In this document: positions 6,192-38,112 of the stretch, in pieces
Position numbering within the stretch: position 1 is the stretch's first letter
Layout: the number at the start of each line of letters is the position of its first letter
Source of the DNA: a virus
Taxonomy: Duplodnaviria > Heunggongvirae > Uroviricota > Caudoviricetes
Length of the DNA stretch: 43,689 nt
Strand: one strand, 5' to 3'
IMG/VR virus record: IMGVR_UViG_3300045988_038444
Span: 1 to 43,689 of that record
Made by a program: the position numbers and the translations under genes
The notes under the pieces: model-generated
Told to the model about the DNA's origin: nothing
What the model saw: only the letters and a program-made list of their open reading frames with translations
Database searches by the model: none

Positions 6192-9164
6192 ATGGCTAAC
6201 TGTAACGATTATATCAGTGCTGATGATTTGAAAACAGGCAAACAAGCGATTTTACATATTGAACACGTTGCGAAAAGTCGTGATGCTAACGGTAATCATG
6301 CGTTGGATGTTACCGATACGATCCGTGATCAATCAGTTACCAACAAGACGCTTGATGGTTTAGAAAACCTGTACAATCAGGCTATATCTCAGGTTGGCTA
6401 TATCACAATGGATAGCTTCGAAGATGGCGCGACATTAACATTGCCTAACCAGGTGTTGCGATATAAGTCGACAGGAGAATATTACCGATGGGACGGTGAA
6501 TTTCCTAAAACCGTTTCTTCTGGTTCAACACCTGAAACTGCTGGTGGCGTTGGTCTTGGCGCGTGGGTTAGTGTTGGTGACGCTTCATTAAGAAGCCAGG
6601 TTTCTGACCCTGATGGCGCAACAAAATATCCAGATTTGCAGATCGCAAGATGGAGAGACACATTCGACCCGCGCGGGTGGAATGCAAAAGGTGATGGGGT
6701 CACCGATGACACCTCAGCGCTTAATGGCGTATTAAACGCCGCACCAGTTGGTCAGAAAATTAATGGCAATGGGAAGACATATAAGGTCACATCCCTGCCT
6801 GACATTAGTAGATTCGTCAATACTCGTTTTGTATATGAACGTATTCCTGGTCAGCCTCTTTTTTATGCTTCTGAAGATTTTATCCAGGGACAGTTATTTA
6901 AAATTACAGATACACCGTGGTACAACGCCTGGACGCAGGATAAAACGTTTGTATATGACAATGTCATCTATGCGCCTTTTATGGCTGGAGACCGCCATGG
7001 TGTAAATAACCTCCATGTTGCATGGGTTCGCTCAGGAGATGACGGGAAGACCTGGACAACGCCGGAATGGCTTACAGATTTACATGAAAACCATCCCACA
7101 GTTAACTATCACTGCATGAGTATGGGGGTTGTCAGAAATCGCCTTTTTGCTGTAATTGAGACGCGGACCGTGAGAGGAAATAAACTGCAGGTTGCAGAGT
7201 TGTGGGATCGCCCAATGAGTCGCAGCCTTCGCGTTTATGGTGGTATAACGAAAGCAGCAAATCAGCAAGTCGCTTATATTCGCATTACTGATCACGGATT
7301 ATTTGCTGGTGATTTTGTCAACTTCTCAAACTCTGGTGTTACAGGTGTTACCGGGAATATGACGGTGACTACTGTTATTGATAAAAATACTTTTACAGTT
7401 ACGACGCAAAATACCCAGGATGTGGATCAGAATAACGAGGGTGGATACTGGAGTTTTGGTACATCATTTCACTCGTCACCATGGAGAAAAACCAGTCTTG
7501 GAACTATTCCTTCTTTTGTTGACGGAAGCACTCCTGTTACTGAGATTCACAGTTTTGCGACGATTAGCGATAACAGTTTTGCTGTTGGCTACCATAATGG
7601 TGATATTGGTCCACGCGAGCTTGGGATACTCTATTTCTCTGATGCTTTCGGTTCTCCTGGTAGCTTTGTTCGCAGACGCATACCTGCAGAATATGAGGCG
7701 AATGCATCTGAGCCATGTGTAAAATATTATGATGGCATTCTGTATCTGACGACCAGGGGGACATTAAGTACTCAACCCGGTAGTTCATTGCACAGAAGCT
7801 CTGATTTAGGTATATCATGGAATTCTCTTCGCTTCCCAAATAATGTTCATCACTCAAACCTTCCTTTTGCCAAAGTTGGCGATGAGCTGATTATTTTTGG
7901 CAGTGAGCGCGCATTTGGTGAGTGGGAAGGAGGAGAACCTGATAACCGTTATGCAGGAAACTATCCAAGAACATTTATGACCAGAGTTAACGTCAATGAG
8001 TGGAGTCTGGATAATGTAGAGTGGGTTAATGTTACTGATCAGATTTATCAGGGCGGAATAGTTAACTCTGCGGTTGGTGTTGGTTCAGTTTGTATCAAAG
8101 ACAACTGGCTGTACTACATTTTCGGTGGGGAAGACTTTCTAAACCCATGGAGCATAGGGGATAACAACAAAAAATATCCTTATGTTCACGATGGTCACCC
8201 GGCTGATTTGTATTGTTTCAGGGTGAAAATTAAACAGGAAGAATTTGTTTCAAGGGATTTTGTCTACGGAGCCACTCCTAACAGAACGCTTCCTACTTTT
8301 ATGTCGACGTCAGGCGTGAGGACGGTTCCTGTACCCGTTGATTTCACAGATGATGTTGCCGTCCAGTCACTGACTGTCCATGCAGGTACATCAGGACAAG
8401 TTCGCGCGGAAGTCAAACTTGAGGGTAATTACGCCATTATTGCGAAGAAAGTACCGTCTGATAATGTTACCGCTCAGAGATTAATCGTTAGCGGCGGTGA
8501 AACAACGTCTTCAGCAGATGGTGCAATGATAACGTTGCATGGTTCCGGAAGCAGTACTCCACGTCGCGCGGTATATAACGCACTCGAACATCTTTTTGAG
8601 AACGGAGATGTTAAACCTCATCTTGATAATGTAAATGCTCTTGGTGGGCCTAGCAACCGTTTCACCACTGCATACCTCGGAAGCAACCCTATTGTTACTT
8701 CTAACGGAGAGAAGAAAACGGAGCCGGTAGTTTTTGATGATGCTTTCCTGGATGCCTGGGGTGACGTTCACTACATCATGTACAAGTGGTTAGATGCTAT
8801 TCAACTGAAAGGCAATGATGCTCGTATTCACTTCGGGGTTATTGCTCAGCAAATTCGTGATGTATTCATTGCACATGGTCTGATGGACGAAAACAGTACG
8901 GATTGTCGTTATGCCGTTCTGTGCTATGACAAGTATCCACGGATGACCGATATGGTATTTTCGCACAATGAAATCGTTGAACACACTGACGATGAGGGTA
9001 ATGTCACTACCACGGAAGAACCTGTATACACCGAGGTGGTTATTCACGAAGAGGGTGAGGAATGGGGTGTTCGGCCTGACGGAATTTTCTTTGCTGAAGC
9101 TGCTTATCAGCGAAGAAAACTGGAAAGAATCGAAGCCAGACTTTCTGCTCTTGAACAGAAGTAA
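6192..9164 (+). CDS. Tail fibre / putative endosialidase (endo-N-acetylneuraminidase) with a C-terminal intramolecular chaperone (peptidase S74-like) domain
   Basis: Two Asp-box (BNR) motifs, SGDDGKTW (~7030) and SSDLGISW (~7795). C-terminal ...DAWGDVHYIMYKWLDAIQLKGNDARIHFGVIAQQIRDVF...RLSALEQK is typical of autocleaving chaperone domains of endosialidases and T5 pb1. Start trimmed to ATG 6192 (GGAGA SD). Confidence 0.75.
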   Translation: MANCNDYISADDLKTGKQAILHIEHVAKSRDANGNHALDVTDTIRDQSVTNKTLDGLENLYNQAISQVGYITMDSFEDGATLTLPNQVLRYKSTGEYYRWDGEFPKTVSSGSTPETAGGVGLGAWVSVGDASLRSQVSDPDGATKYPDLQIARWRDTFDPRGWNAKGDGVTDDTSALNGVLNAAPVGQKINGNGKTYKVTSLPDISRFVNTRFVYERIPGQPLFYASEDFIQGQLFKITDTPWYNAWTQDKTFVYDNVIYAPFMAGDRHGVNNLHVAWVRSGDDGKTWTTPEWLTDLHENHPTVNYHCMSMGVVRNRLFAVIETRTVRGNKLQVAELWDRPMSRSLRVYGGITKAANQQVAYIRITDHGLFAGDFVNFSNSGVTGVTGNMTVTTVIDKNTFTVTTQNTQDVDQNNEGGYWSFGTSFHSSPWRKTSLGTIPSFVDGSTPVTEIHSFATISDNSFAVGYHNGDIGPRELGILYFSDAFGSPGSFVRRRIPAEYEANASEPCVKYYDGILYLTTRGTLSTQPGSSLHRSSDLGISWNSLRFPNNVHHSNLPFAKVGDELIIFGSERAFGEWEGGEPDNRYAGNYPRTFMTRVNVNEWSLDNVEWVNVTDQIYQGGIVNSAVGVGSVCIKDNWLYYIFGGEDFLNPWSIGDNNKKYPYVHDGHPADLYCFRVKIKQEEFVSRDFVYGATPNRTLPTFMSTSGVRTVPVPVDFTDDVAVQSLTVHAGTSGQVRAEVKLEGNYAIIAKKVPSDNVTAQRLIVSGGETTSSADGAMITLHGSGSSTPRRAVYNALEHLFENGDVKPHLDNVNALGGPSNRFTTAYLGSNPIVTSNGEKKTEPVVFDDAFLDAWGDVHYIMYKWLDAIQLKGNDARIHFGVIAQQIRDVFIAHGLMDENSTDCRYAVLCYDKYPRMTDMVFSHNEIVEHTDDEGNVTTTEEPVYTEVVIHEEGEEWGVRPDGIFFAEAAYQRRKLERIEARLSALEQK
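6204..6216 (-). promoter_or_regulatory. Candidate extended -10 promoter (CACTGATATAAT) for the lysis cassette, located inside the first codons of the tail-fibre gene
   Basis: The minus strand reads ...cagcacTGaTATAATcg... with the motif about 35-45 nt upstream of ATG 6165. The same motif recurs upstream of two other minus-strand genes. Confidence 0.4.
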
Positions 9165-9167
9165 TAA

Positions 9168-9197
9168 ACAAAACCCCGCTTCGGCGGGGTTGTTTTA
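9168..9197. terminator. Bidirectional rho-independent terminator
   Basis: Hairpin AACCCCGCTTCGGCGGGGTT flanked by an A-run and a T-run, lying between the convergent tail-fibre and SSB genes. Confidence 0.7.
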
Positions 9198-16114: not shown

Positions 16115-16127
16115 AGTTTAACACGGG
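16115..16127 (-). promoter_or_regulatory. Candidate late promoter motif CCCGTGtTAAACT about 32 nt upstream of the tape-measure ATG
   Basis: The minus strand reads gaCCCGTGtTAAACTgtgtata. A near-identical caCCCGTGgTAAACTataca lies at the same distance upstream of TerL. Confidence 0.35.
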
Positions 16128-16145
16128 TCTAAAAAGCGACAAACG

Positions 16146-16187
16146 TTTAAAATAATTCTTGACGGATTACACAATGATGTGTAACCT
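16146..16187 (+). promoter_or_regulatory. Early promoter copy P1 (TTTAAAATAATTCTTGACGGATTACAC; -35 TTGACG 16159-16164, 17-nt spacer, -10 TAACCT)
   Basis: One of ten nearly identical copies of this element. Confidence 0.7.
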
Positions 16188-16217: not shown

Positions 16218-16397
16218 ATGGCTACTTTCATCATTCTTTTCTTAATCGCTGCTGTATATCTGATCCCAGCACTCATCGCGATTAACGTTAAACATAAACA
16301 ACAAACAGCAATTATTTTACTTAACATCTTTGCGGGTTGGACATTCGTCGGTTGGTTAGGTGCGTTAATCTGGTCTGTGTTAAAAAGCGACAAATAA
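16218..16397 (+). CDS. Superinfection immunity (Imm-like) small membrane protein (59 aa)
   Basis: MATFIILFLIAAVYLIPALIAI...FAGWTFVGWLGALIWSV matches the Imm/PF14373-like pattern. GGAGAG SD. The track's minus ORF 16211..16393 is its shadow. Confidence 0.55.
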   Translation: MATFIILFLIAAVYLIPALIAINVKHKQQTAIILLNIFAGWTFVGWLGALIWSVLKSDK

Positions 16398-16398
16398 G

Positions 16399-23858: not shown

Positions 23859-23875
23859 TGATATCACAGTTGTTA

Positions 23876-27637: not shown

Positions 27638-27651
27638 AATCTATGATCTAC

Positions 27652-27733
27652 TAATACACGTTCTGTATTAGCCGCAACTCAAAATCATGAAACCTATGTA
27701 GAACTATGTGCAGTTAGTACACGTTCTGTATTA
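27652..27733. promoter_or_regulatory. Two 19-bp palindromic operator-like sites TAATACAcgttcTGTATTA (27652-27670) and TAGTACAcgttcTGTATTA (27715-27733), 63 bp apart, just upstream of P3
   Basis: Perfect 7-bp inverted repeat with a 5-bp spacer; the second copy has one mismatch. Confidence 0.55.
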
Positions 27734-27740
27734 ACTGCAT

Positions 27741-27783
27741 CTTTAAAATAATTCTTGACGGATTACACCGACGCAACTATCTT
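27741..27783 (+). promoter_or_regulatory. Early promoter copy P3 (-35 TTGACG 27755-27760, -10 TATCTT)
   Basis: CTTTAAAATAATTCTTGACGGATTACACCGACGCAACTATCTT. Confidence 0.7.
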
Positions 27784-27814
27784 GTGGTTAACAGGAAGAA
27801 AAAGGAGACATGCA

Positions 27815-27883
27815 ATGATTTACTACATACTGGCTTTCATGATTTTCGCAGCACCTGTGATCGTAGGAATAGTAAGAGGTTAA
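27815..27883 (+). CDS. Possible 22-aa hydrophobic micropeptide (MIYYILAFMIFAAPVIVGIVRG)
   Basis: ATG with GGAGA SD right after P3. Confidence 0.2.
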   Translation: MIYYILAFMIFAAPVIVGIVRG

Positions 27884-27887
27884 CAGT

Positions 27888-29178: not shown

Positions 29179-30137
29179 CACGGGATAACATTTATATCTT
29201 GAGGGAGAGAATAAGCAACCCGGCAACGACAATTAATCACGTTCGCAGCACTACCGTTAGGATCACGAGGAAACATAAGTGGTCCTAACGGCGTTGAAAA
29301 CGGTCTGTCCATTGGTATCCAGCCGTTCGTTTCACCTGTAGAAATATGCGCATCACGTGTCCGACCATCTTTTCTATATAACCAGCGCTTCAGCAATTCA
29401 TTACTAATAGCCCCGGTAATCTGTCCCTGACGTATTGCCTGATCCTGACCAACTGATACAGCACGAAGTGATTCAGTACGCGCTATTGTCTCTGTACGCT
29501 GTTTTACATAACGCAAGCGTGTCTGTTCGATTATCTGGTCAATCTTCACCTGTGATAGTTTCCCGGCACTTACAGCGTTCTTCGCACTGTCTGTAACAGT
29601 GGTCAGACTGTTCACATAACCTGCTTCACCTTTTTCCAGTGCTGATCGTAGACGTTGAACCGTCATTTCCTGCCGTGTGGTTAACCCTATTGATGATCGA
29701 AAATCACGGGCTATCTGACGCGGATTTCGTCCGGTTACCATACCCTGGTTAACTGCAATCTGAACAGCTTTGACTGTTTCGTCACTGACTTCACGGATCA
29801 GTTGTCCGACATAGTTGTTGATATATGTGCTGACCTGTGGGGTGACCAGACTGAACACAACCGGACCTGTTACAGCCGCTTTCGGTAGAACCTGAACGAC
29901 TACACGACCTGATTCAGCGATCGCATCTTCAATAACCGGGCGCAACTGTGCACTAAGTTCATCAGGAAGTGTTTCAAGAATGGGGAGTAACCCGGCAATA
30001 CCTTGGGTTTCAATAATGTATTCCAGGTTGGCTAACGACTCACTACGACGCACGTTTTCCCACACAACATCAAGTGCTTCGCGAATGCGAGCGTCATACT
30101 TGTCTGAAATATCCGGGTATGGGTCTTTAGTAGCCAT
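29178..30137 (-). CDS. Head morphogenesis protein (SPP1 gp7 / Mu F-like)
   Basis: Family-typical segment ...NYVGQLIREVSDETVKAVQIAVNQGMVTGRNPRQIARDF...; size 319 aa. Confidence 0.65.
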   Translation of the reverse strand: MATKDPYPDISDKYDARIREALDVVWENVRRSESLANLEYIIETQGIAGLLPILETLPDELSAQLRPVIEDAIAESGRVVVQVLPKAAVTGPVVFSLVTPQVSTYINNYVGQLIREVSDETVKAVQIAVNQGMVTGRNPRQIARDFRSSIGLTTRQEMTVQRLRSALEKGEAGYVNSLTTVTDSAKNAVSAGKLSQVKIDQIIEQTRLRYVKQRTETIARTESLRAVSVGQDQAIRQGQITGAISNELLKRWLYRKDGRTRDAHISTGETNGWIPMDRPFSTPLGPLMFPRDPNGSAANVINCRCRVAYSLPQDINVIP

Positions 30138-30176
30138 AAAAAAGCCTCAGTTAACACACTGAGGCCGATTATATCA
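30137..30176 (-). promoter_or_regulatory. Candidate late promoter (ext -10 CACGTGATATAAT, plus 30168-30176) followed by a hairpin GCCTCAGTGTGTTAACTGAGGC + U6 abutting the ATG of the head morphogenesis gene
   Basis: The hairpin also acts as a terminator for upstream minus-strand transcripts; the GAGG SD lies in its 3' arm. Confidence 0.4.
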
Positions 30177-30310
30177 CGTGTTACGGACGTGGAAGATTAC
30201 GTTTTTCAGTTCCCTGAATGCGGTTCTTAACTTCGCGGATCTGTTCTTCCAGAAACTGTAACGCTTTTTGTGCTCGTTCGTAGTCTATTTCAAGTTCACG
30301 TAATAATTTT

Positions 30311-30505
30311 TCATCTTTTGTCACGATTATAACGTCCTTTAAAACCGGGTCTGACCATCAACTTACCATTCACCACCGCGTGAAATTCACCATTGGTGTC
30401 ATCCATATATTTATAAACTGTCGCTTTGTTACACCCAATCCTCCTAGCAAGTTCTGTCACGTTGCCATAAACGGTGGGTAGTAATTCAGAAATAGTTTGA
30501 ACCAT
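30311..30505 (-). CDS. Small HTH DNA-binding protein (64 aa)
   Basis: TELARRIGCNKATVYKYM is HTH-like. Confidence 0.4.
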   Translation of the reverse strand: MVQTISELLPTVYGNVTELARRIGCNKATVYKYMDDTNGEFHAVVNGKLMVRPGFKGRYNRDKR

Positions 30506-30687
30506 TATAATAGTTCCCCTCTGTCACGTGCCACACGTTCGATTAACCGAATCGTGGCAGACCGTTTATCACCGTCATAAGGTTCTTCATAACGAAGATC
30601 GTCTGTGAAAACGATTTGTTCACGGTCACAGTGAATAACAATAATGTCGTATTTGACCAGAAGGTCGAATGCTTGTTCACCGTTCAT
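30505..30687 (-). CDS. Hypothetical protein (60 aa)
   Basis: Track ORF; stop/start coupled (ATGA) with the downstream gene. Confidence 0.35.
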   Translation of the reverse strand: MNGEQAFDLLVKYDIIVIHCDREQIVFTDDLRYEEPYDGDKRSATIRLIERVARDRGELL

Positions 30688-31312
30688 CGTTAAGATATTC
30701 CTCTGCGTGTAATGCTGCGTAACTGATCAGATCTTCCAGACTGTCACGATGTGGTGTTTCAGTGTCGGAATAGAAACGAACCGCTTTTAACAACATCAGG
30801 AACAACCATCCTTCACCCGGTGTTAAATCGCGCCCGGTAATTGTGTTAAACGCAGCAACGATTTTAGCTGACGAACGTTCCTGACCAGACGTGTCATACT
30901 GCTTACCACGTTCTGTCAGTAGCTGTTCAGCCTGTTTCAGTAAATCAGACGCTGTTGATGGTTGTTGAACAGGTGTGAATAGATGCGCCAGGTGTAAGTC
31001 TGCTAATGACTGTTGTTTATATTTTGTTATTTCATCATTAGTACGAATAGAATAACCATGTATGGCTAACTTGTCGTCATTAACACGAGTAACCATTACA
31101 TCCCGTGGTGAGACTGCAGGACGTTTTTCAACGATTTCCCAGAAATTTTCACTGCTCATTGTAAATTCAGTACCTGTTTCAATTCTTATCATGCGTGCAG
31201 ATACACGGGGTTCTTCTGACCAGTGATAGTCAACACTGAATTTATTAATTTTTGGTTTAACAACACAAGTAGCCCAGTCCGGTGCTTCACTCCAGTTAAT
31301 GTTATGCATCAT
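30677..31312 (-). CDS. Hypothetical protein (~211 aa)
   Basis: Start trimmed to the MMHNINW ATG pair. The track's TTG-start extension is encoded by the reverse complement of promoter P4 and is probably not translated. Confidence 0.4.
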   Translation of the reverse strand: MMHNINWSEAPDWATCVVKPKINKFSVDYHWSEEPRVSARMIRIETGTEFTMSSENFWEIVEKRPAVSPRDVMVTRVNDDKLAIHGYSIRTNDEITKYKQQSLADLHLAHLFTPVQQPSTASDLLKQAEQLLTERGKQYDTSGQERSSAKIVAAFNTITGRDLTPGEGWLFLMLLKAVRFYSDTETPHRDSLEDLISYAALHAEEYLNDER

Positions 31313-31340
31313 TCGTTCCTCATTGGTTAACGTTGACAGA

Positions 31341-31384
31341 AGTTTAAAATAATTCTTGACACATTGCAAGCAGTAACACTAACA
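31341..31384 (+). promoter_or_regulatory. Early promoter copy P4 (-35 TTGACA 31355-31360, -10 TAACAT)
   Basis: GTTTAAAATAATTCTTGACACATTGCA. Confidence 0.65.
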
Positions 31385-31419
31385 TTTGTCACGAACGAAA
31401 CACACTGAGGAATCAAACA

Positions 31420-31923
31420 ATGACTAACCTGTATATCAAAAAACTAACACCCCACGCTGAACTTCCAACACGTGTAACACCAGACAGCGCCGGGTTAGAC
31501 GTTCGTGCTTGCCTATGGGAAGAATCGGTAACTATATTCACAGAATCAGGCGCTAAAGTGGAACGTCCGGTTGTTGCAGGAACAATCGCATTATGGCCCG
31601 GCGACCGCGCTATGATCCCCACTGGTCTGAAAATGTCAGTTGATAACGGATATTGCATTAAATTTTATCCACGTTCCGGCATGAGTCTTAAACACGGTTT
31701 GTCACTGATCAACTGTGTGGGTATCGGTGATCGTGATTACAAAGAAGAATACTACGTTACGCTGACTAACCACGGACAGAAATTACAGACTATCGCAGAC
31801 GGTGAACGCGTTTGCCAGCTTATGGTTGAACGTGTCGAACCTGTTAATCTGGTTGAAGTGGAAGAATTACCAGATGTTGATAGTCAGCGTAATGGCGGGT
31901 TTGGATCAACAGGACGGGTATGA
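31420..31923 (+). CDS. dut: dUTPase (deoxyuridine triphosphatase)
   Basis: Motifs AGLDVRA, YPRSGMSLKHG, GIGDRDYKEEYYV and QRNGGFGSTGR. Confidence 0.85.
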   Translation: MTNLYIKKLTPHAELPTRVTPDSAGLDVRACLWEESVTIFTESGAKVERPVVAGTIALWPGDRAMIPTGLKMSVDNGYCIKFYPRSGMSLKHGLSLINCVGIGDRDYKEEYYVTLTNHGQKLQTIADGERVCQLMVERVEPVNLVEVEELPDVDSQRNGGFGSTGRV

Positions 31924-32249
31924 TGAACAATCGTGATTTATTAGTCAACGCAGCACGGGCTGCTGAAATCCAGGGTAAATATTACGTCGCGTACGACGAA
32001 CGTTATATAAACGAAGGTATTGATATAGGTAATGGTCGCCTGTGGAACCCTCTTACACGTAATGAGGATGCTTTCAGTCTGATGGTTAACATGTACATGG
32101 ATCTGGATGTTCGTGACAACGAAGTGACGGTTAATAACCCTGACACTGGCGTTAGTTATAAGCAACCAGTTAGCCACGGAGAAGATCGTGAAAAAGCAAC
32201 GCGTTTAGCGATCGTCAACTGTGCAGCAATTGTGGGGTCGTATTTATGA
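31920..32249 (+). CDS. Hypothetical protein (109 aa)
   Basis: Track ORF overlapping the dut stop. Confidence 0.45.
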   Translation: MMNNRDLLVNAARAAEIQGKYYVAYDERYINEGIDIGNGRLWNPLTRNEDAFSLMVNMYMDLDVRDNEVTVNNPDTGVSYKQPVSHGEDREKATRLAIVNCAAIVGSYL

Positions 32250-32494
32250 CGATATTTAAAAACTCAATGGGCGATACTGTCGCGTATCTACCGAAAGTCA
32301 TTATTGCAGATCCATCCTGTGTTGATTACCCACACTGCAAGCAATCTGAAGCGACCTACAACGACCTGTGCGCTGATATTATGCGTGGTTGTGACATCGG
32401 TATTGAACGACTTCAGAAACTGCGGGAGGAATACGAAAAACGGTCTGTTCAGGCAGCAATGGGTTTACCGCCTGTATACGATAATTTAAAATAA
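32246..32494 (+). CDS. Hypothetical protein (82 aa); its last codons (..NLK*) are encoded by the UP-element of promoter P5
   Basis: Track ORF; gataatTTAAAATAAttcttgacgg. Confidence 0.4.
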   Translation: MTIFKNSMGDTVAYLPKVIIADPSCVDYPHCKQSEATYNDLCADIMRGCDIGIERLQKLREEYEKRSVQAAMGLPPVYDNLK

Positions 32495-32526
32495 TTCTTG
32501 ACGGATTACACAAGGACGTGTAACCT
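32487..32526 (+). promoter_or_regulatory. Early promoter copy P5 (-35 TTGACG 32498-32503, ext -10 TGtTAACCT)
   Basis: Identical to P1 over ~35 nt, including the spacer GATTACACAaggacGTGTAACCTACAA. Confidence 0.7.
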
Positions 32527-32556
32527 ACAAACATCAAAACAAAGGAGGACACAATC

Positions 32557-32901
32557 ATGTTATTCGCTATTTTATGGGTTCTTTTCTCTCTGATTATCGC
32601 GGGTGTTGCCAAACAAACGGGTCGCAACCCTGGTGCATGGTTCTTTATCGCATTTCTCACAAGTCCTGTGATCGGTGGTCTGATTCTGTTAATCGCATAT
32701 CTGTTTAACGGTAAGGTCGTAAGGGAACAACCGAAAGTGGTAACCACGGGGATGTTTAGTAACTACCTTGCAGCCTATAACTATGTTAATGAACATTACA
32801 CCATTGATACTGACTACCGGGCAGAAGCAGCCAGTGACCTGTTTAAGTATGCTACCTGTCGCGAGGACTGTGATAAACTGATCGCGAAGTACGTTAACTG
32901 A
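32557..32901 (+). CDS. Membrane protein (2 TM, 114 aa)
   Basis: MLFAILWVLFSLIIAGVA...WFFIAFLTSPVIGGLILLIAYLF; GGAGGA SD. Confidence 0.45.
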   Translation: MLFAILWVLFSLIIAGVAKQTGRNPGAWFFIAFLTSPVIGGLILLIAYLFNGKVVREQPKVVTTGMFSNYLAAYNYVNEHYTIDTDYRAEAASDLFKYATCREDCDKLIAKYVN

Positions 32902-32916
32902 CAGGAGAAAACTTAA

Positions 32917-33249
32917 ATGCGTTTTGAAATTCTTGAGCTTGTTAAATATGACAAGACTGCTGCTGAAATTCTGGTTGATGCAGTTGCTGACAACGAAGTG
33001 AAATTTAAACTACTTAACAAGGTCTGGAAATACATTGTAACCACGACTATTGTTGAGCAAGCATCACAGTTTAAAGAAGTTGTTGCTGATATGTACGCGT
33101 TCACTGGCGATGATGAGGTTAAACTACAACTGCTTGATAAAACGCTGGAACGTGCGATCAACAACAGTTATCCGTTACAGACTCGTATTCAGACTGCGGT
33201 TGATGAAGCGAGTAAATTACTGTCAATCGTGCAGCCTGAAACTAAGTAA
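32917..33249 (+). CDS. Hypothetical protein (110 aa)
   Basis: Track ORF with GGAGAA SD. Confidence 0.45.
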   Translation: MRFEILELVKYDKTAAEILVDAVADNEVKFKLLNKVWKYIVTTTIVEQASQFKEVVADMYAFTGDDEVKLQLLDKTLERAINNSYPLQTRIQTAVDEASKLLSIVQPETK

Positions 33250-33255
33250 AAATTA

Positions 33256-33283
33256 AGGGACCAGAAACGGTCCCTTTTTAATT
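33256..33283. terminator. Bidirectional rho-independent terminator between the converging + cassette and the portal gene
   Basis: Hairpin AGGGACCAGAAACGGTCCCT flanked by A/T runs on both sides. Confidence 0.7.
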
Positions 33284-34638
33284 CAGTCGTCAATAGACGG
33301 TAACCCATCCCCGGCTTTATCAATCCCCGTAATAGGTAGACCCGCCTCTTTATATACGTATTCCTGAAGGTCTGGATCCGGGAATACAGGCGCGCCAGCT
33401 TGTGCAAGTCGTGCAAGTGCAGTGGTCAACGTTTCGATACTGTCTTTACTGATCGACCCGGCGCGAATCGACGGGCGGTATTCATCAGGAAATGCGTTTA
33501 ACGACCATAACTGCGGTATCAACTGACGATTAACACATTCTACAATGCTGTCAATACGTGATTGCATTGCGCGGATCCATAATTCAGTACGACTACCCAG
33601 GTTAGCATTATTCCCGGTATTACCACCCGTTCCGAAAAACATGAAATCAGCCAGTAACGCACGGGCAATACTGGTATCCAGGCGTTTAATCGTCCGGTCA
33701 ATATCCACAGAACTGGTCTGATTAGGTGTAACGAATTCCAGTTTCACCTGTTGTTCACCACCATACGTGGTAACACCTGTTTCGTTATCGTAACCCGTGA
33801 TATACGGTTTAGAATAAATCACCAGTCCTGATTGTTCATTGCGTTTGATATTAGCGACGATGTTTTCATAGTTATCAATCATCGCCTGTGCTGCCTGACG
33901 TTGTTGTTCAGGAACGTTGGGGTCATTAGCCGCTTTCTTAATATCTGCGTTAACAGTAATTACCGGGAACCCTGTACCACGTTCGGCAAGTATGGATTCG
34001 ATTTCCATATTCACTTTTTTGTAGTACCACGGACGATAAGCTGTGCGCAGCAGTGATAAACCTTCCGGGTTACCTTTATTCGGACTTGAAATCAAATGAA
34101 GCGAACGGTCACGCGTGATTAACGTCGTTGTACCCTGGTTAGGTGAACGTTGATAAATACCACGAACATAACCTGTCGGTTCTTCAATGTCCCAGCCAGC
34201 AAGCGTTTCAGGTGCTACAGGAACCAGACGGGCAATACCCACCGTGCCATCATCAAGGTCTTTCACCCAGATGTCATACCAACCCCAGCCAAACACATCA
34301 ACGTCTGTCCATGTCTGAACGAACGCGGACCAGGTATCGTCCGGGAGTGCACCACGCGGATCACCCATTTTATTTTCAACAGCATCCTGTAACCATTCTG
34401 AATAACGAATAGCTTCTGGATCATCTTTGTCAGACGGGTCAAAAATCCACTGTACAGAACGATAAACGCTACTCATAGCGAATAACACACCGCCAATAGT
34501 TTCGTCGTTCTCAGCCATCTGACGCAGAATACGACGGCCTTGTTTACCGTTCAGCTTAGGAAGGAAATCGTCGTTTACCTGGTTGCCTGTTCGACTGTAC
34601 CCGGCAACGGCTAGTTGTTCGAATTGTTGATCAGCCAT
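33283..34638 (-). CDS. Portal protein (451 aa)
   Basis: Size, position downstream of TerL and upstream of head morphogenesis, and an acidic C-terminus. Confidence 0.7.
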   Translation of the reverse strand: MADQQFEQLAVAGYSRTGNQVNDDFLPKLNGKQGRRILRQMAENDETIGGVLFAMSSVYRSVQWIFDPSDKDDPEAIRYSEWLQDAVENKMGDPRGALPDDTWSAFVQTWTDVDVFGWGWYDIWVKDLDDGTVGIARLVPVAPETLAGWDIEEPTGYVRGIYQRSPNQGTTTLITRDRSLHLISSPNKGNPEGLSLLRTAYRPWYYKKVNMEIESILAERGTGFPVITVNADIKKAANDPNVPEQQRQAAQAMIDNYENIVANIKRNEQSGLVIYSKPYITGYDNETGVTTYGGEQQVKLEFVTPNQTSSVDIDRTIKRLDTSIARALLADFMFFGTGGNTGNNANLGSRTELWIRAMQSRIDSIVECVNRQLIPQLWSLNAFPDEYRPSIRAGSISKDSIETLTTALARLAQAGAPVFPDPDLQEYVYKEAGLPITGIDKAGDGLPSIDD

Positions 34639-34667
34639 GTTCTACAGGCTCCATACGGTTTACGGTT

Positions 34668-34680
34668 CTTAACGTATGTT
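34668..34680 (-). promoter_or_regulatory. Candidate late promoter (ext -10 CACTGATATAAC) upstream of the portal gene
   Basis: Minus strand ccatCACTGATATAACatacg, about 30-40 nt upstream of ATG 34638. Same motif as at 6204-6216 and 30168-30176. Confidence 0.4.
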
Positions 34681-34706
34681 ATATCAGTGATGGTTTTTTT
34701 GCACGG

Positions 34707-34749
34707 TGTTAAAATAATTCTTGACGAATTGCAAACGTGCGATTATGCT
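34707..34749 (+). promoter_or_regulatory. Early promoter copy P6 (-35 TTGACG 34721-34726, -10 TATGCT)
   Basis: GTTAAAATAATTCTTGACGAATTGCA. Confidence 0.7.
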
Positions 34750-34780
34750 TTAGTCATCAAATGAACGAAGGGTGATAACT

Positions 34781-35092
34781 ATGAAACCGAATGAAAATAT
34801 TACACAACTGGATATTGCTTTTGGACCTAAAAACATTGCTGAATTTCTCCCGGCGATGGGTAGTATTCCGAAAGAATTTTTCGAAAATTCTAACCCGTGG
34901 AATCAGTGGGTCAGCAAATGGTTCTTCAACGGTCTGAAAGAATACGCAGTTGCTGTTGAAGGTGTGAACTTTAAAGATGCTCACGCGCATATCAAAGTGA
35001 TCCTGGGTAGTTTCGAACCTAAACACGAACATAAAATTGCCGGGTGTGCGTATCTCGCGTCAATGTGGTTTGTACCGGAGACAGTTAAATGA
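34781..35092 (+). CDS. Hypothetical protein (~103 aa)
   Basis: Start trimmed to ATG 34781 (AAGGGTGA SD). Confidence 0.45.
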   Translation: MKPNENITQLDIAFGPKNIAEFLPAMGSIPKEFFENSNPWNQWVSKWFFNGLKEYAVAVEGVNFKDAHAHIKVILGSFEPKHEHKIAGCAYLASMWFVPETVK

Positions 35093-35235
35093 ATCCAAGA
35101 AATATTAGTCGCCCGTGGGTTGAAAATTCACGCTCCGATCACTTCGAACGCCGTAAAGCAGAAGTTAAACGCTTGGTTGCCGCTGGTCACACTAAAAAAC
35201 GTGCACAACAAATTGCTAAAAGTAAGGGGTTTTGA
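35089..35235 (+). CDS. Small basic protein (48 aa)
   Basis: ATGA-coupled start at 35089. Confidence 0.3.
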   Translation: MNPRNISRPWVENSRSDHFERRKAEVKRLVAAGHTKKRAQQIAKSKGF

Positions 35236-35238
35236 ATT

Positions 35239-35397
35239 ATGGTATATGTTCTGATTTTCATTCTTAGTAGTAACATGATCGGTAGTGCTGAATTTAATAG
35301 TAAATCTGCATGTGAACAAGTAAACAAAGATATTCGTACAGCCGGACACCACGTGTGGGCGAAATGTTATCCGAAAGGTATGATAAACGGAGAATAA
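35239..35397 (+). CDS. Small protein with a hydrophobic N-terminus (52 aa)
   Basis: ATG 35239; MVYVLIFILSSNMIGSA looks like a signal peptide or TM helix. Confidence 0.3.
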   Translation: MVYVLIFILSSNMIGSAEFNSKSACEQVNKDIRTAGHHVWAKCYPKGMINGE

Positions 35398-35399
35398 TC

Positions 35400-35735
35400 A
35401 TGAATCATGTAAACGCTATTCGCTGTAATGATGAATATCAGTGTTCACACTGTGGTAAATCGTGGGATATCCACGAAGAAGCGCCAGATTGTAAAATGAC
35501 ACTGGTTAGTGCAGATGTGTATAAAACTGTCAATTATTTTGGTTTGTCTTTAACTGTTCCTGAAGATATTGACTATATAGCCACGAATAGTTACGGGGTT
35601 GTTTACGGGTATTTTAGTGAACCAGAACTATGTGATGAATTTTGGGATAATCATCGTTACGGTATCCCAAAAGTGAGGCTTGCAACTGTAAACCTACACG
35701 GGCTGAACTGGCGGGAGACTCTAAGAAAATGTTAA
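35400..35735 (+). CDS. Zinc-binding hypothetical protein (111 aa)
   Basis: Start trimmed to ATG 35400 (GGAGA SD); contains CSHCGK...C. Confidence 0.45.
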   Translation: MNHVNAIRCNDEYQCSHCGKSWDIHEEAPDCKMTLVSADVYKTVNYFGLSLTVPEDIDYIATNSYGVVYGYFSEPELCDEFWDNHRYGIPKVRLATVNLHGLNWRETLRKC

Positions 35736-35890
35736 TTGGCTATGTACTGGTGCTTGTTCTACACGGTGTGGCTATTGAACCTGTGACAGAACGTATTATG
35801 ACGTTCGAACAGTGTCAGGGTGCTTTACAAGCTGAACAGGCTTACAACCCTGATAAAAATTACGGGTGTGCTGAAGTTTATCGGGACTAA
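35729..35890 (+). CDS. Small secreted/membrane protein (53 aa)
   Basis: ATG overlaps the previous stop; hydrophobic N-terminus LIGYVLVLVLHGVAI. Confidence 0.3.
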   Translation: MLIGYVLVLVLHGVAIEPVTERIMTFEQCQGALQAEQAYNPDKNYGCAEVYRD

Positions 35891-35977
35891 TTATTATGGA
35901 ATACATGTACATTGCTTTCTCACTTCTGTTAATGATTGTTGTCGTTATTACAACTGAGAAAAAAAGAACAAGGTGTG

Positions 35978-36172
35978 ATGGGTTTAGCAGTTGCTCTGAT
36001 TCGTGTTCTTTCAATCATGTTGCTGGTAACCAGTTTTTCAATTGCTTTTGACATCGTGGAATTACAAAGCGATTATTACGGTTTTGTGAAACTTCAACAT
36101 CAGTTGACATACGCCGTCATATTCGGTTTAGGTTCTGTTAGCCTCGCTGTTCTTTCATCTTTCAGACATTGA
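35978..36172 (+). CDS. Small membrane protein (64 aa, 2 TM)
   Basis: Start trimmed to ATG 35978 (AAGGTG SD); ends 6 nt before the terminator. Confidence 0.4.
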   Translation: MGLAVALIRVLSIMLLVTSFSIAFDIVELQSDYYGFVKLQHQLTYAVIFGLGSVSLAVLSSFRH

Positions 36173-36198
36173 AAAAAAGCCCCGGACAGTTCCGGGGC
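36172..36198 (-). terminator. Rho-independent terminator (strong on the minus strand, after TerL)
   Basis: Minus strand GCCCCGGAACTGTCCGGGGC + U7. Confidence 0.7.
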
Positions 36199-36299
36199 GA
36201 AGTCGATTAGTAAAACGTGAACGCGGAAAACTGTAATGGTACTATGAACGGACTGGTAAACCCTCTGAAAACGGGCGGGAATAATCCCGCCACACTGTT

Positions 36300-38063
36300 T
36301 TAAAAAATGTCACCGTATTCAGGAGTACCAACAGGATTCACACTACCAGTAAATGGTTCTTCGACAAATTCGGTGCGTTTTGGTGATAGTGCAATAACCG
36401 CAGCGTCGAAAAAGTTTGGTGACTTACTTCCGTTTGGTTTCTTGTCGATCACAATCTTCCCGGCACCGTTACTGGTATACGTTGGCTGACTTAACTCAGC
36501 TTCTAACCGTTGTGCGTTTTCCAGTGACGGATCAATCAGAATGATTTCGTCCGGATCCTGTGGTTGACCTTCCACATACCATTTATAAATTCGCTGACAA
36601 CGCAGGCGTAACGCCCACGATGCTTGTGCTTTATAATTTGAGAAATAATCTTTGTTTGATTTACGGTCTTTGTCACCAGGTTTTGTACCACCGATAATAT
36701 CACCACCCGGATCCACAACTTTTCCATTCGGTAACCACGGGCGCACACGGAAGCGTAAAATATCTTTCCGGTCATTTGCCGCTACTTTAACGCCTGTACC
36801 AACACCGTTAACTTCGTACCAGTATTCATCAACACCCAGCATATTAGCCATCGTCAACATTCCCGGTGCAGCCAGTTCAGCACCCCTGTGGTCAAGTTGC
36901 AGATGTGTCAGGAATACACCGTGAGCAATTACCAGCGCACTGGCATCTTCCCCACCGTCTGCTGCGTCCTGTCCGGCAATACGTTGACCTGTTGGTGTAA
37001 GTAGTCCATTAACTTTGCGCCATTCTGTGTCACGGAAAGCGTCAAAAGCAGCGCGTACCCATTCAGCTTTAATCAACACCCCCTGAACAGCAGCGGCATA
37101 ATCGCGGTCAACTTCCTGTGCGAAAATATGCTGTAAACCTTTTTCAGCGAACGATTGTTTTTCTCGCTTATACCATTCATCGTCTTTAGCCGGGTGATCA
37201 CGCCAGTCAAGAACCATTACACGCAATTTACCACGGGGTAATTTCTTGCCCGGTTCCCATTCCAGACCAGCTTTACGATTACGATAAAAAACGTTACCAA
37301 CACCGTTAACTGAACTGATGTCGATACGAACGTTGGTGTTAGCTGACAACGACGCTTCAATCAGTTCAGGACGGTCTACGTGTGCCGCTTCGTCCAAGAA
37401 GTAGACAGATTTACGACCACCACGACCGATGTTGTCACCAGCTTCACCAGTAATTGTTGCACCGTTTTCAGGGTTGATACATTTCATGTAAACCAGATGG
37501 TCTTTTTCACGCAGACCAACAGGACGTAATTCCGGTGGTAATGCGCGGATAATCTGGCGAATCTTTTCAAAAATACTATCCGGGTCACCCAGTTTATCGA
37601 CAAGCTGCTCTTTACGTGACCCCCAGCCAACTGAAGAACCAGGACGATACAGCCACGCCCACACGGATAAACCACAGGCTACCCAGGTCGCACCATAGTC
37701 TCGTGATTTTTCCCAAAGTCCTTTTTCTTTGTCTTCAAGCGCTTCATAAACAAACTGAACCATATCGATCTGACGTTCGAAAAGGCAGAAAGGCATGTTG
37801 GGTGGATATTCAGTACCGACGTTACGCGGGTCGTAAGTAAACGCCCAGTCGAGGATAAACGCTACCGGGTTTGTTTCGTAATACTTTTTCAGCACCGGGA
37901 CAATTGCCCGATCCGTGCGCATACGGTTTAACAGGTTAATACGGTCAATGTAACACTGCTTGTAATCCGGGCGTGGCTGACCTTTTCGCCAGATACGTTC
38001 GTCATTTGCGTAGGCATCACGCCAGCGCGGGTAATTATGAATATTTCCAGTAAACTTATTCAT
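36300..38063 (-). CDS. Terminase large subunit
   Basis: 587 aa; Walker A-like ...YGATWVACGLS..., ATPase/nuclease two-domain size, located upstream of the portal. Confidence 0.8.
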   Translation of the reverse strand: MNKFTGNIHNYPRWRDAYANDERIWRKGQPRPDYKQCYIDRINLLNRMRTDRAIVPVLKKYYETNPVAFILDWAFTYDPRNVGTEYPPNMPFCLFERQIDMVQFVYEALEDKEKGLWEKSRDYGATWVACGLSVWAWLYRPGSSVGWGSRKEQLVDKLGDPDSIFEKIRQIIRALPPELRPVGLREKDHLVYMKCINPENGATITGEAGDNIGRGGRKSVYFLDEAAHVDRPELIEASLSANTNVRIDISSVNGVGNVFYRNRKAGLEWEPGKKLPRGKLRVMVLDWRDHPAKDDEWYKREKQSFAEKGLQHIFAQEVDRDYAAAVQGVLIKAEWVRAAFDAFRDTEWRKVNGLLTPTGQRIAGQDAADGGEDASALVIAHGVFLTHLQLDHRGAELAAPGMLTMANMLGVDEYWYEVNGVGTGVKVAANDRKDILRFRVRPWLPNGKVVDPGGDIIGGTKPGDKDRKSNKDYFSNYKAQASWALRLRCQRIYKWYVEGQPQDPDEIILIDPSLENAQRLEAELSQPTYTSNGAGKIVIDKKPNGSKSPNFFDAAVIALSPKRTEFVEEPFTGSVNPVGTPEYGDIF

Positions 38064-38089
38064 GGTTATCGGCCCGTTTGTAACTGTTC

Positions 38090-38112
38090 TGTATAGTTTA
38101 CCACGGGTGATT
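38090..38112 (-). promoter_or_regulatory. Candidate late promoter motif caCCCGTGgTAAACTataca about 32 nt upstream of the TerL ATG
   Basis: Paired with the near-identical motif upstream of the tape-measure gene. Confidence 0.35.

Follow-up and report, generated by a model that had tools for sequence, protein, structure and literature searches.

Putative host-type extended −10 promoters upstream of the virion and lysis units of a 9NA-like siphovirus

How can virion genes be expressed in a genome where opposite-strand clusters of small accessory genes split them into about ten pieces? This is the plan of the 9NA-like siphovirus studied here (the window, i.e., the whole stretch of 43,689 nucleotides that was analyzed), which has ~95% identity to the Escherichia coli phages AVIO78A, Bas82 and PDP46. 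The virion genes occupy the minus strand, interrupted by plus-strand clusters of small genes, and the tailspike gene (ATG at 6192) is the sole virion gene on the plus strand. Because of this fragmentation, each virion unit needs a promoter of its own. Neither transcription start data nor a description of transcription organization for the 9NA-like group was found in the literature searched. A preliminary description had proposed two recurrent late-promoter motifs, one before the lysis, head-morphogenesis and portal genes (motif 1) and the other before the TerL, tape-measure and major tail protein genes (motif 2), and all six of these minus-strand sites are present in the sequence. Footprints were aligned between the window and the phages 9NA, Sergei, AVIO78A and Carvaje (relatives 80 to 95% identical), with the Proteus phage PM-CJR (60% amino acid identity in TerL) as a distant comparison, and chance counts came from dinucleotide-preserving shuffles of the window.

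Both motifs are versions of TGnTAnnnT, the ordinary extended −10 signal of E. coli. Motif 1 is TGATATAAT, or its variant ending in C, a near-perfect sigma70 extended −10, and motif 2 is TGnTAAACT, which belongs to this class and has a weaker hexamer. Extended −10 (TGn) sigma70 promoters, of which galP1 and lambda pRE are examples from E. coli and its phages, carry a TG one base upstream of TAnnnT, and this dinucleotide allows promoter opening by the polymerase even if the −35 box is poor; the class is reportedly covered by Keilty and Rosenberg in 1987, Barne et al. in 1997 and Mitchell et al. in 2003. TGn followed by TAnnnT or TAnnnC is matched at five of the six sites (perfect consensus TGnTATAAT at two), with the TG one base 5' of the hexamer at 6208, 30168, 34678, 38095 and 16115 and absent at 20331. 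The hexamer is TATAAT twice (6/6 matches), TAAACT three times (4/6) and, before the portal gene, TATAAC (5/6), which lacks the usually essential last T. At the −35 position, 16 to 18 bp upstream, only one to four of the six bases match TTGACA (CTGTCA, TTGTCG and CCGTGC are the poor boxes 17 bp upstream), and these are unconserved among relatives, as expected for the extended −10 class. The idea of two phage-specific motifs is not supported, since both correspond to this host signal and their prefixes, CAC and A/CCCCG, vary among relatives.

The motifs themselves are real and conserved, but two sets of coordinates had to be moved by 4 to 10 nt: the lysis site, CACTGATATAAT, lies at 6208-6219 instead of 6204-6216, and the portal site, CACTGATATAAC, at 34678-34689, 10 nt away from the proposed 34668-34680. 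The head-morphogenesis site, CACGTGATATAAT, spans 30168-30180, and the range 30168-30176 given for it is exact for TGATATAAT. On the same minus strand, ACCCGTGGTAAACT is found at 38095-38108 before TerL and ACCCGTGTTAAACT at 16115-16128 before the tape-measure gene; the tail ascribed to motif 2, (N)T(N)TA, fits the latter (gTgTA) but not the former (aTaCA). The distance of ~32 nt from the last base of the hexamer to the A of the ATG was correct for TerL and tape measure alike, while it is about 31, 40 and 43 nt for motif 1 and 34 to 35 nt for the TAAACT of the major tail protein. A constant spacing is nevertheless no special argument for these motifs, since the promoter family of the opposite strand also keeps 30 to 35 nt from −10 to ATG. 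All the features are collected in Table 1.

Table 1. Putative promoter elements and the associated terminator hairpin in the window
Feature	Position	Strand	Context
Extended −10 TGATATAAT	6208-6216	-	~42 nt before first lysis gene ATG (6165)
Extended −10 TGATATAAT	30168-30176	-	~30 nt before head-morphogenesis ATG (30137); directly abuts terminator hairpin
Intrinsic terminator hairpin	30143-30166	-	9-bp stem, then U6
Extended −10 TGATATAAC, hexamer without final T	34678-34686	-	~39 nt before portal ATG (34638)
Extended −10 TGGTAAACT	38095-38103	-	~31 nt before TerL ATG (38063)
Extended −10 TGTTAAACT	16115-16123	-	~31 nt before tape-measure ATG (16083)
TAAACT without TG, weak candidate	20331-20336	-	~33 nt before major tail protein ATG (20297)
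Extended −10 TGCTAATAT	22917-22925	-	Just past terminator; 28 nt before ATG 22888; new here
Extended −10 TGATATCAT	23858-23866	-	44 nt before ATG 23813; new here
TTGCGT-N17-TACTAT promoter	18059-18087	-	Before tail assembly chaperone gene (ATG 18025)
TTGCAA-N17-TAAACT candidate promoter	31341-31369	-	Unit from 211-aa gene to NinH (ATG 31312)
Extended −10-like TGGGAAACT	42361-42369	-	27 nt before TerS ATG (42333); TGGACA 18 bp upstream
Extended −10 TGCTATTAT	6124-6132	+	59 nt before tailspike ATG (6192)
Fourth TGATATAAT	18631-18639	-	No downstream minus-strand gene for 605 nt; not in preliminary description
Cassette TTAAAATAATTC TTGACA N17 CAGACT	38128-38168	+	To gene at 38201; 27 bp from TerL −10
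Cassette TTGACG N17 TATGCT	34709-34749	+	To gene at 34781; 25 bp from portal −10
Cassette TTGACG N17 TAACCT	16147-16187	+	To superinfection-immunity gene at 16218; 26 bp from tape-measure −10
Cassette TTGACG N17 TATCTT	18093-18133	+	To gene at 18166
Cassette TTGACG N17 TATCTT	27743-27783	+	Then 22-codon hydrophobic ORF, then gene at 27888
Cassette GCAAAATAATTCTTGACG N17 TACCCT	27416-27456	-	71 nt before ATG 27385
Cassette TTGACA N18 TAACAT	31344-31385	+	To dUTPase gene at 31420
Cassette	32486-32526	+	Within plus-strand cluster, before gene at 32557
Cassette TTGACG N17 TAGACT	39490-39530	+	Before gene at 39563
Cassette TTGACG N17 TAATAT	41338-41378	+	Before gene at 41413

Some of the strings are more frequent than expected. 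TGATATAAY has four copies, all on the minus strand, against 0.91 expected (none of 100 shuffles reached four), ACCCGTGNTAAACT has two exact copies plus one with a single mismatch that is antisense in a coding region (0.05 expected), and the core TGNTAAACT has seven against 2.29, five of them away from unit starts. Bare TAAACT, with 34 copies in the window, is so common that the major-tail site has no evidential value by itself. For the a priori consensus TGNTATAAT, the count is not raised above chance (3 versus 1.95 expected); the signal resides in position and conservation, not in number. A relaxed extended −10 pattern gave 140 matches in the window, mostly within genes, and a generic −35/−10 promoter scan performed at chance level and picked up none of the six sites; a sequence match alone thus proves little. 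The position is informative: an extended −10 lies 15 to 60 nt upstream of 8 of the 12 first genes of virion or lysis units and of 4 of the 43 other gene starts (Fisher p=1.5e-4), with the qualification that the choice of three internal "unit-first" genes was partly guided by the sites themselves.

In the alignments with 9NA, Sergei, AVIO78A and Carvaje, the conserved 8 to 10 nt appear as islands of identity in variable DNA, their distance from the ATG being unchanged, and the prefixes CAC and ACCCG are not conserved (the former is GCC in Carvaje before the portal gene, the latter ACTAG in 9NA and Sergei before TerL). At TerL, GTGGTAAACT is invariant in five phages and the 19-nt spacer toward the 17-mer of the opposite strand (see below) is variable. 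Before the tape-measure gene, no block other than GTTAAACT is invariant in an alignment of 62% identity that includes two different upstream contexts. GTGATAyAAT is kept in five phages before the head-morphogenesis gene (TACAAT in Carvaje), with divergent surroundings and different upstream genes, and the portal TGATATAAC together with the next 12 nt is identical in 9NA, Sergei and Carvaje. The lysis TGATATAAT falls within the opening codons of the tailspike gene, which is divergent; three synonymous sites of the tailspike codons GAT TAT ATC remain unchanged in 9NA, Sergei and Carvaje, and with them the motif, while five flanking codons vary. The TG is conserved at these sites except in the tape-measure one, which retains it in three of the five phages (lost in 9NA and Carvaje). 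The major-tail site, described as a TAAACT-only version, is weak: it is without TG and overlaps the stop codon of the upstream gene. It is the same in Sergei and reads TGtTAAACT in 9NA, where a gene in reverse orientation has been inserted upstream, but Carvaje lacks it. Even PM-CJR has TATAAT or TATACT hexamers at the corresponding positions, upstream of TerL, portal, gp40, the chaperone and the tape-measure gene.

Similar sites precede four or five more units. The one at 22917 becomes TGCTAAAAT in Carvaje. That at 23858, abutting a terminator hairpin (23833-23856) that follows the major capsid gene, is uncertain because Carvaje has only a degenerate version (TGgTAACAT in 9NA); so is the TerS site, whose hexamer is weak (TGcGAAACT in 9NA, TGcAAAATT in Carvaje). 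The chaperone promoter, cTTGCGyAATTyGTACAGAACTATTAmTAT, is conserved in four phages, with divergence after it. At 31341, the −10 overlaps the end of the 17-mer; with divergent ATGs only 107 nt apart, the promoters at 31341 and 31344 would have to overlap. The lambdoid nin-region genes NinH and NinX are both carried by these phages. The tailspike gene, late yet on the other strand, also has a conserved TGnTATnAT (TGtTATGAT in 9NA and Carvaje, TGtTATAAT in Sergei). The fourth TGATATAAT is antisense within what is probably a plus-strand gene with a frameshift, which makes it an orphan or else a promoter of antisense transcription.

The stronger signal in this genome is a 25-bp element, TTAAAATAATTCTTGACrgATTrCA, whose 17-mer has nine exact copies against 0.22 expected. 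This dominant repeat, 25 to 27 bp from three of the six sites, had been missed in the preliminary description. It points along the opposite strand, ~70 nt before each small-gene cluster, with an RBS and ATG 68 to 76 nt from its start, and comprises an AT-rich UP-like tract and a −35 box, followed by a 17-bp spacer and TAnnnT. In the information profile of 34 copies from four genomes, the peaks coincide with the AT tract, TTGAC and the T, A and T of the hexamer 17 bp downstream. The family thus has the sequence features expected of consensus sigma70 promoters (TTGACA-like −35, spacer of 17 +/- 1 bp, TAnnnT, AT tract upstream), and the AVIO78A site homologous to 31344-31385 is annotated as a sigma70 promoter. 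Strong promoters with consensus −35 and −10 boxes and an AT-rich UP-like region are known from T5 (PN25), T7 (A1) and rrnB P1, and the cassettes resemble them in the AT tract, TTGACr, 17-bp spacer and TAnnnT and, as with strong phage early promoters, in preceding early-type (accessory and replication) genes. Unlike usual host-type promoters, 25 to 26 bp are almost invariant over the 34 copies, even at positions that the polymerase is not known to recognize, namely the C preceding the −35 and the spacer bases ggATTrCA. The only copy along the virion strand, at 27416, precedes an extra gene ahead of the head genes and forms a 61-nt inverted repeat with that at 27743. In 9NA and Sergei, the family is also found before the replication operon, so the two promoter classes follow gene function.

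At the divergent junctions, each virion promoter would stand back-to-back with a near-consensus sigma70 promoter driving the opposite cluster. The virion −10 is 25 to 28 bp from the 17-mer, predicted starts are ~87 bp apart, and a single 11-bp AT tract would occupy about −38 to −49 of both promoters. Closely spaced divergent promoters are known in bacteria, and bidirectional promoters have reportedly been described by Warman et al. in 2021; the junctions are like such promoter pairs in having opposite-strand promoters within ~90 bp and an AT-rich center common to both. However, they share this upstream tract instead of a symmetric −10, and the two arms belong to different sequence and gene classes. 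The sites had also been placed downstream of bidirectional terminators, which is mostly wrong: those of TerL, portal, tape measure and lysis lie in divergent gene junctions, and the head-morphogenesis site is immediately upstream of a terminator hairpin. The 3' arm of this hairpin (30143-30166) contains the head-morphogenesis RBS, and the start predicted from the −10 at 30168 falls within its 5' arm; the whole structure has −19.2 kcal/mol, reduced to −3 to −6.6 if the RNA begins 7 to 9 nt past the −10. Among relatives, its stems are conserved and its loops variable.

Their conservation and position make it very probable that the elements are genuine promoter signals for the virion and lysis units, even if the relation to terminators fails for most sites and the motif specificity claimed for them is not supported. 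We consider it probable that they are the −10 regions of host sigma70 extended −10 promoters, which would start separate units for TerL, portal, head morphogenesis, the tape measure with tail genes and the lysis cassette, and similarly for the further units, including the tailspike gene. By their sequence, the virion promoters are a class distinct from the opposite-strand cassettes, and both classes appear host-type. The virion sites resemble known extended −10 promoters in the TG and TAnnnT with a poor or absent −35, in the conservation of TG and hexamer while the spacer drifts, and in lying 27 to 44 nt before the ATG, with room for a short leader and RBS. They differ in the missing last T of the portal TATAAC, in the four of six matches of TAAACT and in the loss of TG from some relatives (9NA and Carvaje at the tape measure). 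The perfect TGATATAAT at 18631 also serves no gene, and a plain sigma70 promoter alone does not explain late timing. Sequences, positions, conservation and association with gene class are direct observations, from which we infer the use of the sigma70 holoenzyme, the start positions and an expression of the virion class later than the consensus class; "late" is an assumption for the virion promoters.

A phage factor (alternative sigma, activator or RNA polymerase modifier) reading TGATATAAY and ACCCGTGnTAAACT seems unlikely. It would account for the separation of virion promoters from the consensus promoters of early-type genes, for −35 regions as poor as is typical of activator-dependent promoters, for the retention of ACCCGTGGTAAACT in the window, AVIO78A and Carvaje and of the invariant TACAGAAC just past the TerL −10, and for the near-copy ACCCGTGGTTAACT that recurs in the head-protease leader of 9NA, Sergei and Carvaje. 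But the conserved core is only the 8 to 10 nt that match the host extended −10, and the prefixes drift. Late promoters of T4 have TATAAATA at −10, which gp55 recognizes together with gp33 and the sliding clamp, and are similar in being −10-only signals without −35 at a short fixed distance before virion genes, whereas the TG conserved here is a contact of sigma70 region 3.0 and not a T4 feature. The single TATAAATA in the window (30408-30415, inside a gene; 2.31 expected) led us to reject a T4-type late box, and GTACAGAAC is not enriched either. Promoters of a T7-like single-subunit RNA polymerase were also rejected, since the motifs share only 9 nt versus the ~20 bp of near-identity required across the start site at every copy, and the annotations of 9NA, Sergei, Carvaje and AVIO78A contain no RNA polymerase gene. 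Among 30 small ORFs scanned with Pfam, most gave no match at all, and none showed a gp55-like or other sigma, RNA polymerase, Q-like or other antiterminator domain (the window covers roughly three quarters of the genome, with ~14 kb beyond it).

That the strings have no promoter function, being chance AT-rich sequences or conserved through neighboring leaders, coding regions and terminators, is quite improbable. Transcription would then start elsewhere, for example at a minus-strand −10 (AAGAAT or TATTTT) inside the 17-mer, making it a bidirectional promoter; the generic scan does give a minus-strand CTGACA-N18-AAGAAT inside the TerL copy, and for the unit at ATG 31312 the start has to lie inside a 17-mer or at its edge. 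The chance-level count of TGNTATAAT, the five TGNTAAACT copies and one TGATATAAT away from unit starts, the lysis site within a conserved coding region and the TerL and portal leaders conserved throughout also agree with this. Several results speak against it. At the head-morphogenesis and tape-measure sites, the islands of identity stand out clearly from the DNA around them; the association with position is significant; the remote phage of Proteus has equivalent hexamers; most copies of the 17-mer offer neither a TG nor a usable −35 to the minus-strand hexamers that they contain; and the 17-mer is also found where no minus-strand gene follows (32486, 39490 and 41338). It is very improbable that the motif-2 sites are −10-like sequences in the initially transcribed region, for sigma70-dependent pausing or regulator binding as at lambdoid late promoters, with the true start upstream. 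This reading derives from ACCCGTGGTTAACT: in 9NA, Sergei and Carvaje, just 17 nt separate it from the head-protease ATG, and a better extended −10, TGATATTAT, precedes it 32 nt before this ATG, so that ACCCGTGGTTAACT cannot be the start signal there. The lambdoid nin-region genes fit this reading. Yet neither TerL nor tape measure has a better −10 between the 17-mer and the motif, no Q-like protein was found by Pfam among the 30 small ORFs, and coding DNA has many relaxed versions of the string.

Beyond being a strong promoter, the 25-bp element might conceivably be the hinge of a bidirectional early/late switch, a speculation that we regard as rather doubtful. An early protein of the phage would use the invariant non-contact bases, C-TTGACrgATTrCA, as its operator and, by sitting on the −35 and spacer of the early promoter, would shut that promoter off and free the shared AT tract and the polymerase alpha subunits for the weak virion promoter; expression of the ten or so dispersed virion units would then begin at the same time. 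Terminator-embedded promoters (30143-30176 and 23833-23866) would add a second trick: upstream transcripts would terminate, with the RBS locked in the stem, while those begun in the 5' arm would escape termination and expose it.

No new type of regulatory signal is revealed, the elements being of known kind. For a genome plan as odd as that of the 9NA-like phages, the analysis provides a concrete and testable promoter map of the virion and lysis units, with host-type extended −10 promoters before those units that have a candidate, a uniform near-consensus cassette before the small-gene clusters, and the two back-to-back. Such a map is of use for annotation and engineering in a group that includes phages of E. 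coli, Salmonella and Klebsiella proposed for biocontrol.

All six sites at which the preliminary description had placed two late-promoter motifs were found on the minus strand, with the lysis site lying ~4 nt and the portal (third motif 1) site 10 nt away from where they had been put. The spacing of ~32 nt proposed for TerL and the tape measure turned out to be exactly 32 nt from the end of the hexamer to the ATG. The motif TGATATAAT is a literal TGnTATAAT, i.e., the consensus extended -10 of E. coli sigma70, and TGgTAAACT and TGtTAAACT follow the same pattern, with four of the six hexamer positions matching and the critical A2 and T6 kept. Motifs 1 and 2, which had been considered distinct, therefore belong to one class. 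The -35 boxes found 17 bp upstream of these sites are poor; the TG of an extended -10 makes up for a missing -35. These sites are very probably genuine promoters serving the virion and lysis units, though the host type to which they belong is well known. In contrast to what had been suggested, they do not generally lie downstream of bidirectional terminators. The earlier observation is partly confirmed and its interpretation partly supported.

Candidate promoter elements and copies of the 17-mer in the window
Feature	Positions	Strand	Sequence
Motif 1, lysis	6208-6219	minus	CACTGATATAAT
Motif 1, head morphogenesis	30168-30180	minus	CACGTGATATAAT
Motif 1, portal	34678-34689	minus	CACTGATATAAC
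Motif 2, TerL	38095-38108	minus	ACCCGTGGTAAACT
Motif 2, tape measure	16115-16128	minus	ACCCGTGTTAAACT
Bare TAAACT, major tail	20331-20336	minus	TAAACT
Extended -10, newly listed	22917-22925		TGCTAATAT
Extended -10, newly listed	23858-23866		TGATATCAT
Extended -10, newly listed	21241-21249		TGTTATGCT
Extended -10, newly listed, before tailspike gene (sole virion gene on plus strand)	6124-6132	plus	TGCTATTAT
17-mer copy	16147-16163		
17-mer copy	18093-18109		
17-mer copy	27440-27456		
17-mer copy	27743-27759		
17-mer copy	31344-31360		
17-mer copy	32486-32502		
17-mer copy	34709-34725		
17-mer copy	38128-38144		
17-mer copy	39490-39506		
17-mer copy	41338-41354		

Megablast of positions 30000-38200 gave matches to the E. 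coli phages AVIO78A, KarinMuster_Bas82, PDP46 and PJ16 (~95% identity), the Salmonella phages Sasha, Sergei and 9NA (84-90%) and the Klebsiella phage Carvaje (~80%), and thus the window covers the greater part of a 9NA-like siphovirus genome (Nonanavirus/Sashavirus), in reverse orientation to the deposited records. Our gene map, which agrees with how 9NA, Carvaje, AVIO78A and Sergei are annotated, has the virion and lysis genes on the minus strand in ~10 units separated by plus-strand clusters of small genes, an interrupted layout already pointed out in the 9NA genome announcement (PMC4153490). Plus-strand inserts among the virion genes (16218-16397, 16399-17310 and 21207-22103) code for a superinfection-immunity protein (PF14373, detected with Pfam) and two T5orf172/MUG113 paralogs that have DUF723 and CapR zinc-finger regions and look like homing endonucleases; the insert at 16218-17310 is missing at that place in 9NA, Sergei and Carvaje. 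A stretch of 571 nt without any ORF (22889-23459, minus strand) is flanked by two virion genes and contains a tRNA-like T-arm (ggttcgattccaacc, at about 23165-23180). Neither ARAGORN nor Rfam identified a tRNA in it, or gave any match in the window, and Carvaje has a tRNA-Ser at the equivalent position; it is probably what is left of a tRNA, or else an unknown RNA. An iteron-like repeat of 19 nt (TAATGCACAACATGCACTA) occurs eight times at 42438-42892, upstream of the gene for the small terminase, and may be a pac or other DNA-recognition region, and a 21-bp unit (GAACCACCTGTATCACGAGTG) is repeated in tandem ~8 times at the window's right end (43479-43646); tandem repeat regions are likewise annotated in Sergei's record.

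An extended -10 (TGn, hexamer of at least 4/6, A2 and T6) was present 15-60 nt upstream of 8 of the 12 first genes of virion or lysis units, three internal units having been set with some hindsight, versus 4 of the remaining 43 gene starts (Fisher p=1.5e-4). Against shuffles of the window, TGATATAAY was found 4 times (0.91 expected), the 14-mer of motif 2 twice plus one near-copy (0.05) and the core TGNTAAACT 7 times (2.29), with five of its copies lying elsewhere; TAAACT by itself appears 34 times in the window. The a priori extended -10 consensus was not above chance (3 vs 1.95 expected) and its relaxed version gave 140 occurrences in the window. A generic sigma70 scan was dropped as a discriminator, since its totals equaled chance (38 vs 35.6 and 44 vs 43.8) and it recovered six copies of the 17-mer family described below and none of the proposed sites. 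The case for promoters is therefore built on position and conservation. A fourth TGATATAAT (18631-18639), missed before, serves no minus-strand gene and is antisense within an apparently frameshifted plus-strand gene. This gene (18166-18486) seemingly runs on in the +1 frame to 18790, with ~95 open codons and no start codon; possible explanations are a frameshift, a pseudogene or an error in sequencing.

Upstream of TerL, GTGGTAAACT is unchanged in the five phages aligned, while the 19 nt separating it from the next conserved element are wholly different among them. GTGATAyAAT is unchanged upstream of the head-morphogenesis gene (TACAAT in Carvaje) despite different preceding genes, and at the portal TGATATAAC is the same in all the phages compared, with a variable CAC prefix. 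Before the tape measure, GTTAAACT is the sole invariant block in an alignment of 62% identity spanning two unrelated contexts, with the TG present in three of the five phages. The lysis site falls within the opening codons of the tailspike gene, which diverges from the lysis genes, and here three internal synonymous positions, including the G of the TG, are invariant and five flanking codons vary; the tailspike's own element reads TGtTATGAT, TGtTATAAT and TGtTATGAT in three relatives. The lysis and tailspike candidate promoters are each inside the other gene, and thus ~60 nt of the two predicted 5' leaders would be complementary to each other. In this region (6124-6216), the two divergent ATGs are 26 nt apart and have a common palindromic RBS region (CTCCAGGAG). 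The major-tail TAAACT is missing in Carvaje, whose major tail gene directly adjoins the neighboring one, and in 9NA there is a full TGtTAAACT with a reverse gene inserted upstream; the site in the window can at most be a weak internal promoter. Even the distant Proteus phage PM-CJR (TerL 60% identical) has TATAAT or TATACT hexamers at the equivalent places (TerL, portal, gp40, chaperone and tape measure), accompanied by a TTTAyA box 17 bp upstream.

More striking than these motifs is a 25-bp promoter family that the preliminary description did not mention. A 17-mer (GTCAAGAATTATTTTAA) was found 25-27 bp upstream of three of the sites (TerL, portal and tape measure), and it occurs nine times without mismatch on the minus strand, plus once with two mismatches on the plus strand (0.22 expected). 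The 17-mer, TTAAAATAATTCTTGAC, has the same sequence in 9NA, Sergei and Carvaje and forms the core of a 25-bp near-invariant cassette predicted to fire against the direction of the virion genes. On the strand complementary to GTCAAGAATTATTTTAA, it reads TTAAAATAATTC-TTGACr-gATTrCA, with a 17-bp spacer and a TAnnnT after the TTGACr, and the RBS and ATG of a plus-strand gene come 68-76 nt from the start of the cassette. When 34 copies from the window, 9NA, Sergei and Carvaje were profiled for information content, 25-26 bp proved nearly invariant and, beyond this block, peaks fell exactly at the T, A and T of the -10 hexamer. By its sequence, the cassette reads as a near-consensus sigma70 promoter with a UP-like AT tract, and one copy was marked as a sigma70 promoter by the annotators of AVIO78A. 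It precedes small-gene clusters with the superinfection-immunity protein and the two T5orf172/DUF723 endonuclease-like genes (Pfam), as well as dUTPase and RdgC genes (named from the relatives' annotations), and likewise leads the replication operon in 9NA and Sergei. Only one copy (27416-27456) has the orientation of the virion strand; it stands in front of an additional gene that comes before the head genes. PM-CJR has the same back-to-back arrangement with a sequence of its own (GTCAAGCcATAtTTTAAAC). Scanning IMG/VR with the 17-mer gave more than 119 contigs, nearly all of them with just one match, in AT-rich viral DNA that is unrelated, and was uninformative. Just upstream of the cassette at 27743, inside the 502-nt gap separating two divergent cassettes, there are two copies of a 53-nt direct repeat (27632-27747), the second with an imperfect palindrome of 13-nt arms (TGCAGTTAGTACA-5-TGTATTAACTGCA) that looks like an operator. 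This cassette is followed at canonical distance by a 22-codon hydrophobic ORF (27811-27884, plus strand, MIYYILAFMIFAAPVIVGIVRG), ahead of a 182-aa gene.

The uniformity of the 25-bp family leaves some room for a phage protein reading it, which we consider unlikely. Among 30 small ORFs, Pfam detected no sigma, polymerase or antiterminator domain, NinH being the sole DNA-binding family, and no T4-type late box was found, its one copy in the window lying inside a gene. ACCCGTG was considered as a separate factor site, the 7-mer being enriched (14 vs 5.16 expected), but it was rejected as a defined motif because most copies are within genes and the TerL prefix ACCCG is ACTAG in 9NA and Sergei; its relaxed versions are common coding strings. 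Similarly, GTACAGAAC does not vary where it follows the TerL -10 or within the chaperone promoter spacer, and was discarded as an operator for lack of enrichment (16 vs 12.4, one mismatch allowed). A minus-strand promoter within the 17-mer (AAGAAT or TATTTT) has no consistent -35 or TG and is only a minor rival, and a spacer hairpin, which inspection by eye showed in some copies (16147, 32486, 41338 and 39490) and not in others, was also set aside. One base off the TerL motif, ACCCGTGGTTAACT is located 17 nt before the head-protease ATG in 9NA (16169-16182), and likewise in Sergei and Carvaje; a better extended -10, TGATATTAT, lies upstream, and hence it cannot be the start signal there. No transcriptome of this phage group was found in the literature searched, and the papers on AVIO78A and PDP46 do not discuss these promoter motifs. 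Nor were the motif strings found in that literature, which did not extend to Zeng et al. 2019, the key genomics paper on 9NA-like phages.

Promoter class follows gene class: early-type genes have consensus promoters, and virion and lysis genes have extended -10 promoters without a -35. Where the units diverge, the predicted start sites of the two promoters are ~87 bp apart and an 11-bp AT tract is at about -38 to -49 of both. Either promoter could use this tract as an upstream element, or the two could compete for it. At head morphogenesis (30143-30176) and after the capsid gene (23833-23866), both on the minus strand, the -10 adjoins a terminator hairpin and the predicted start is inside its 5' arm; at the former, the 3' arm holds the RBS of the gene. 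The whole hairpins fold at -19.2 and -21 kcal/mol, versus just -3 to -9 kcal/mol retained in RNAs starting 7-9 nt past the -10. We infer that transcripts coming from upstream would stop at these terminator-embedded promoters while those started locally would escape and read on; the arrangement of the elements is conserved in five phages.
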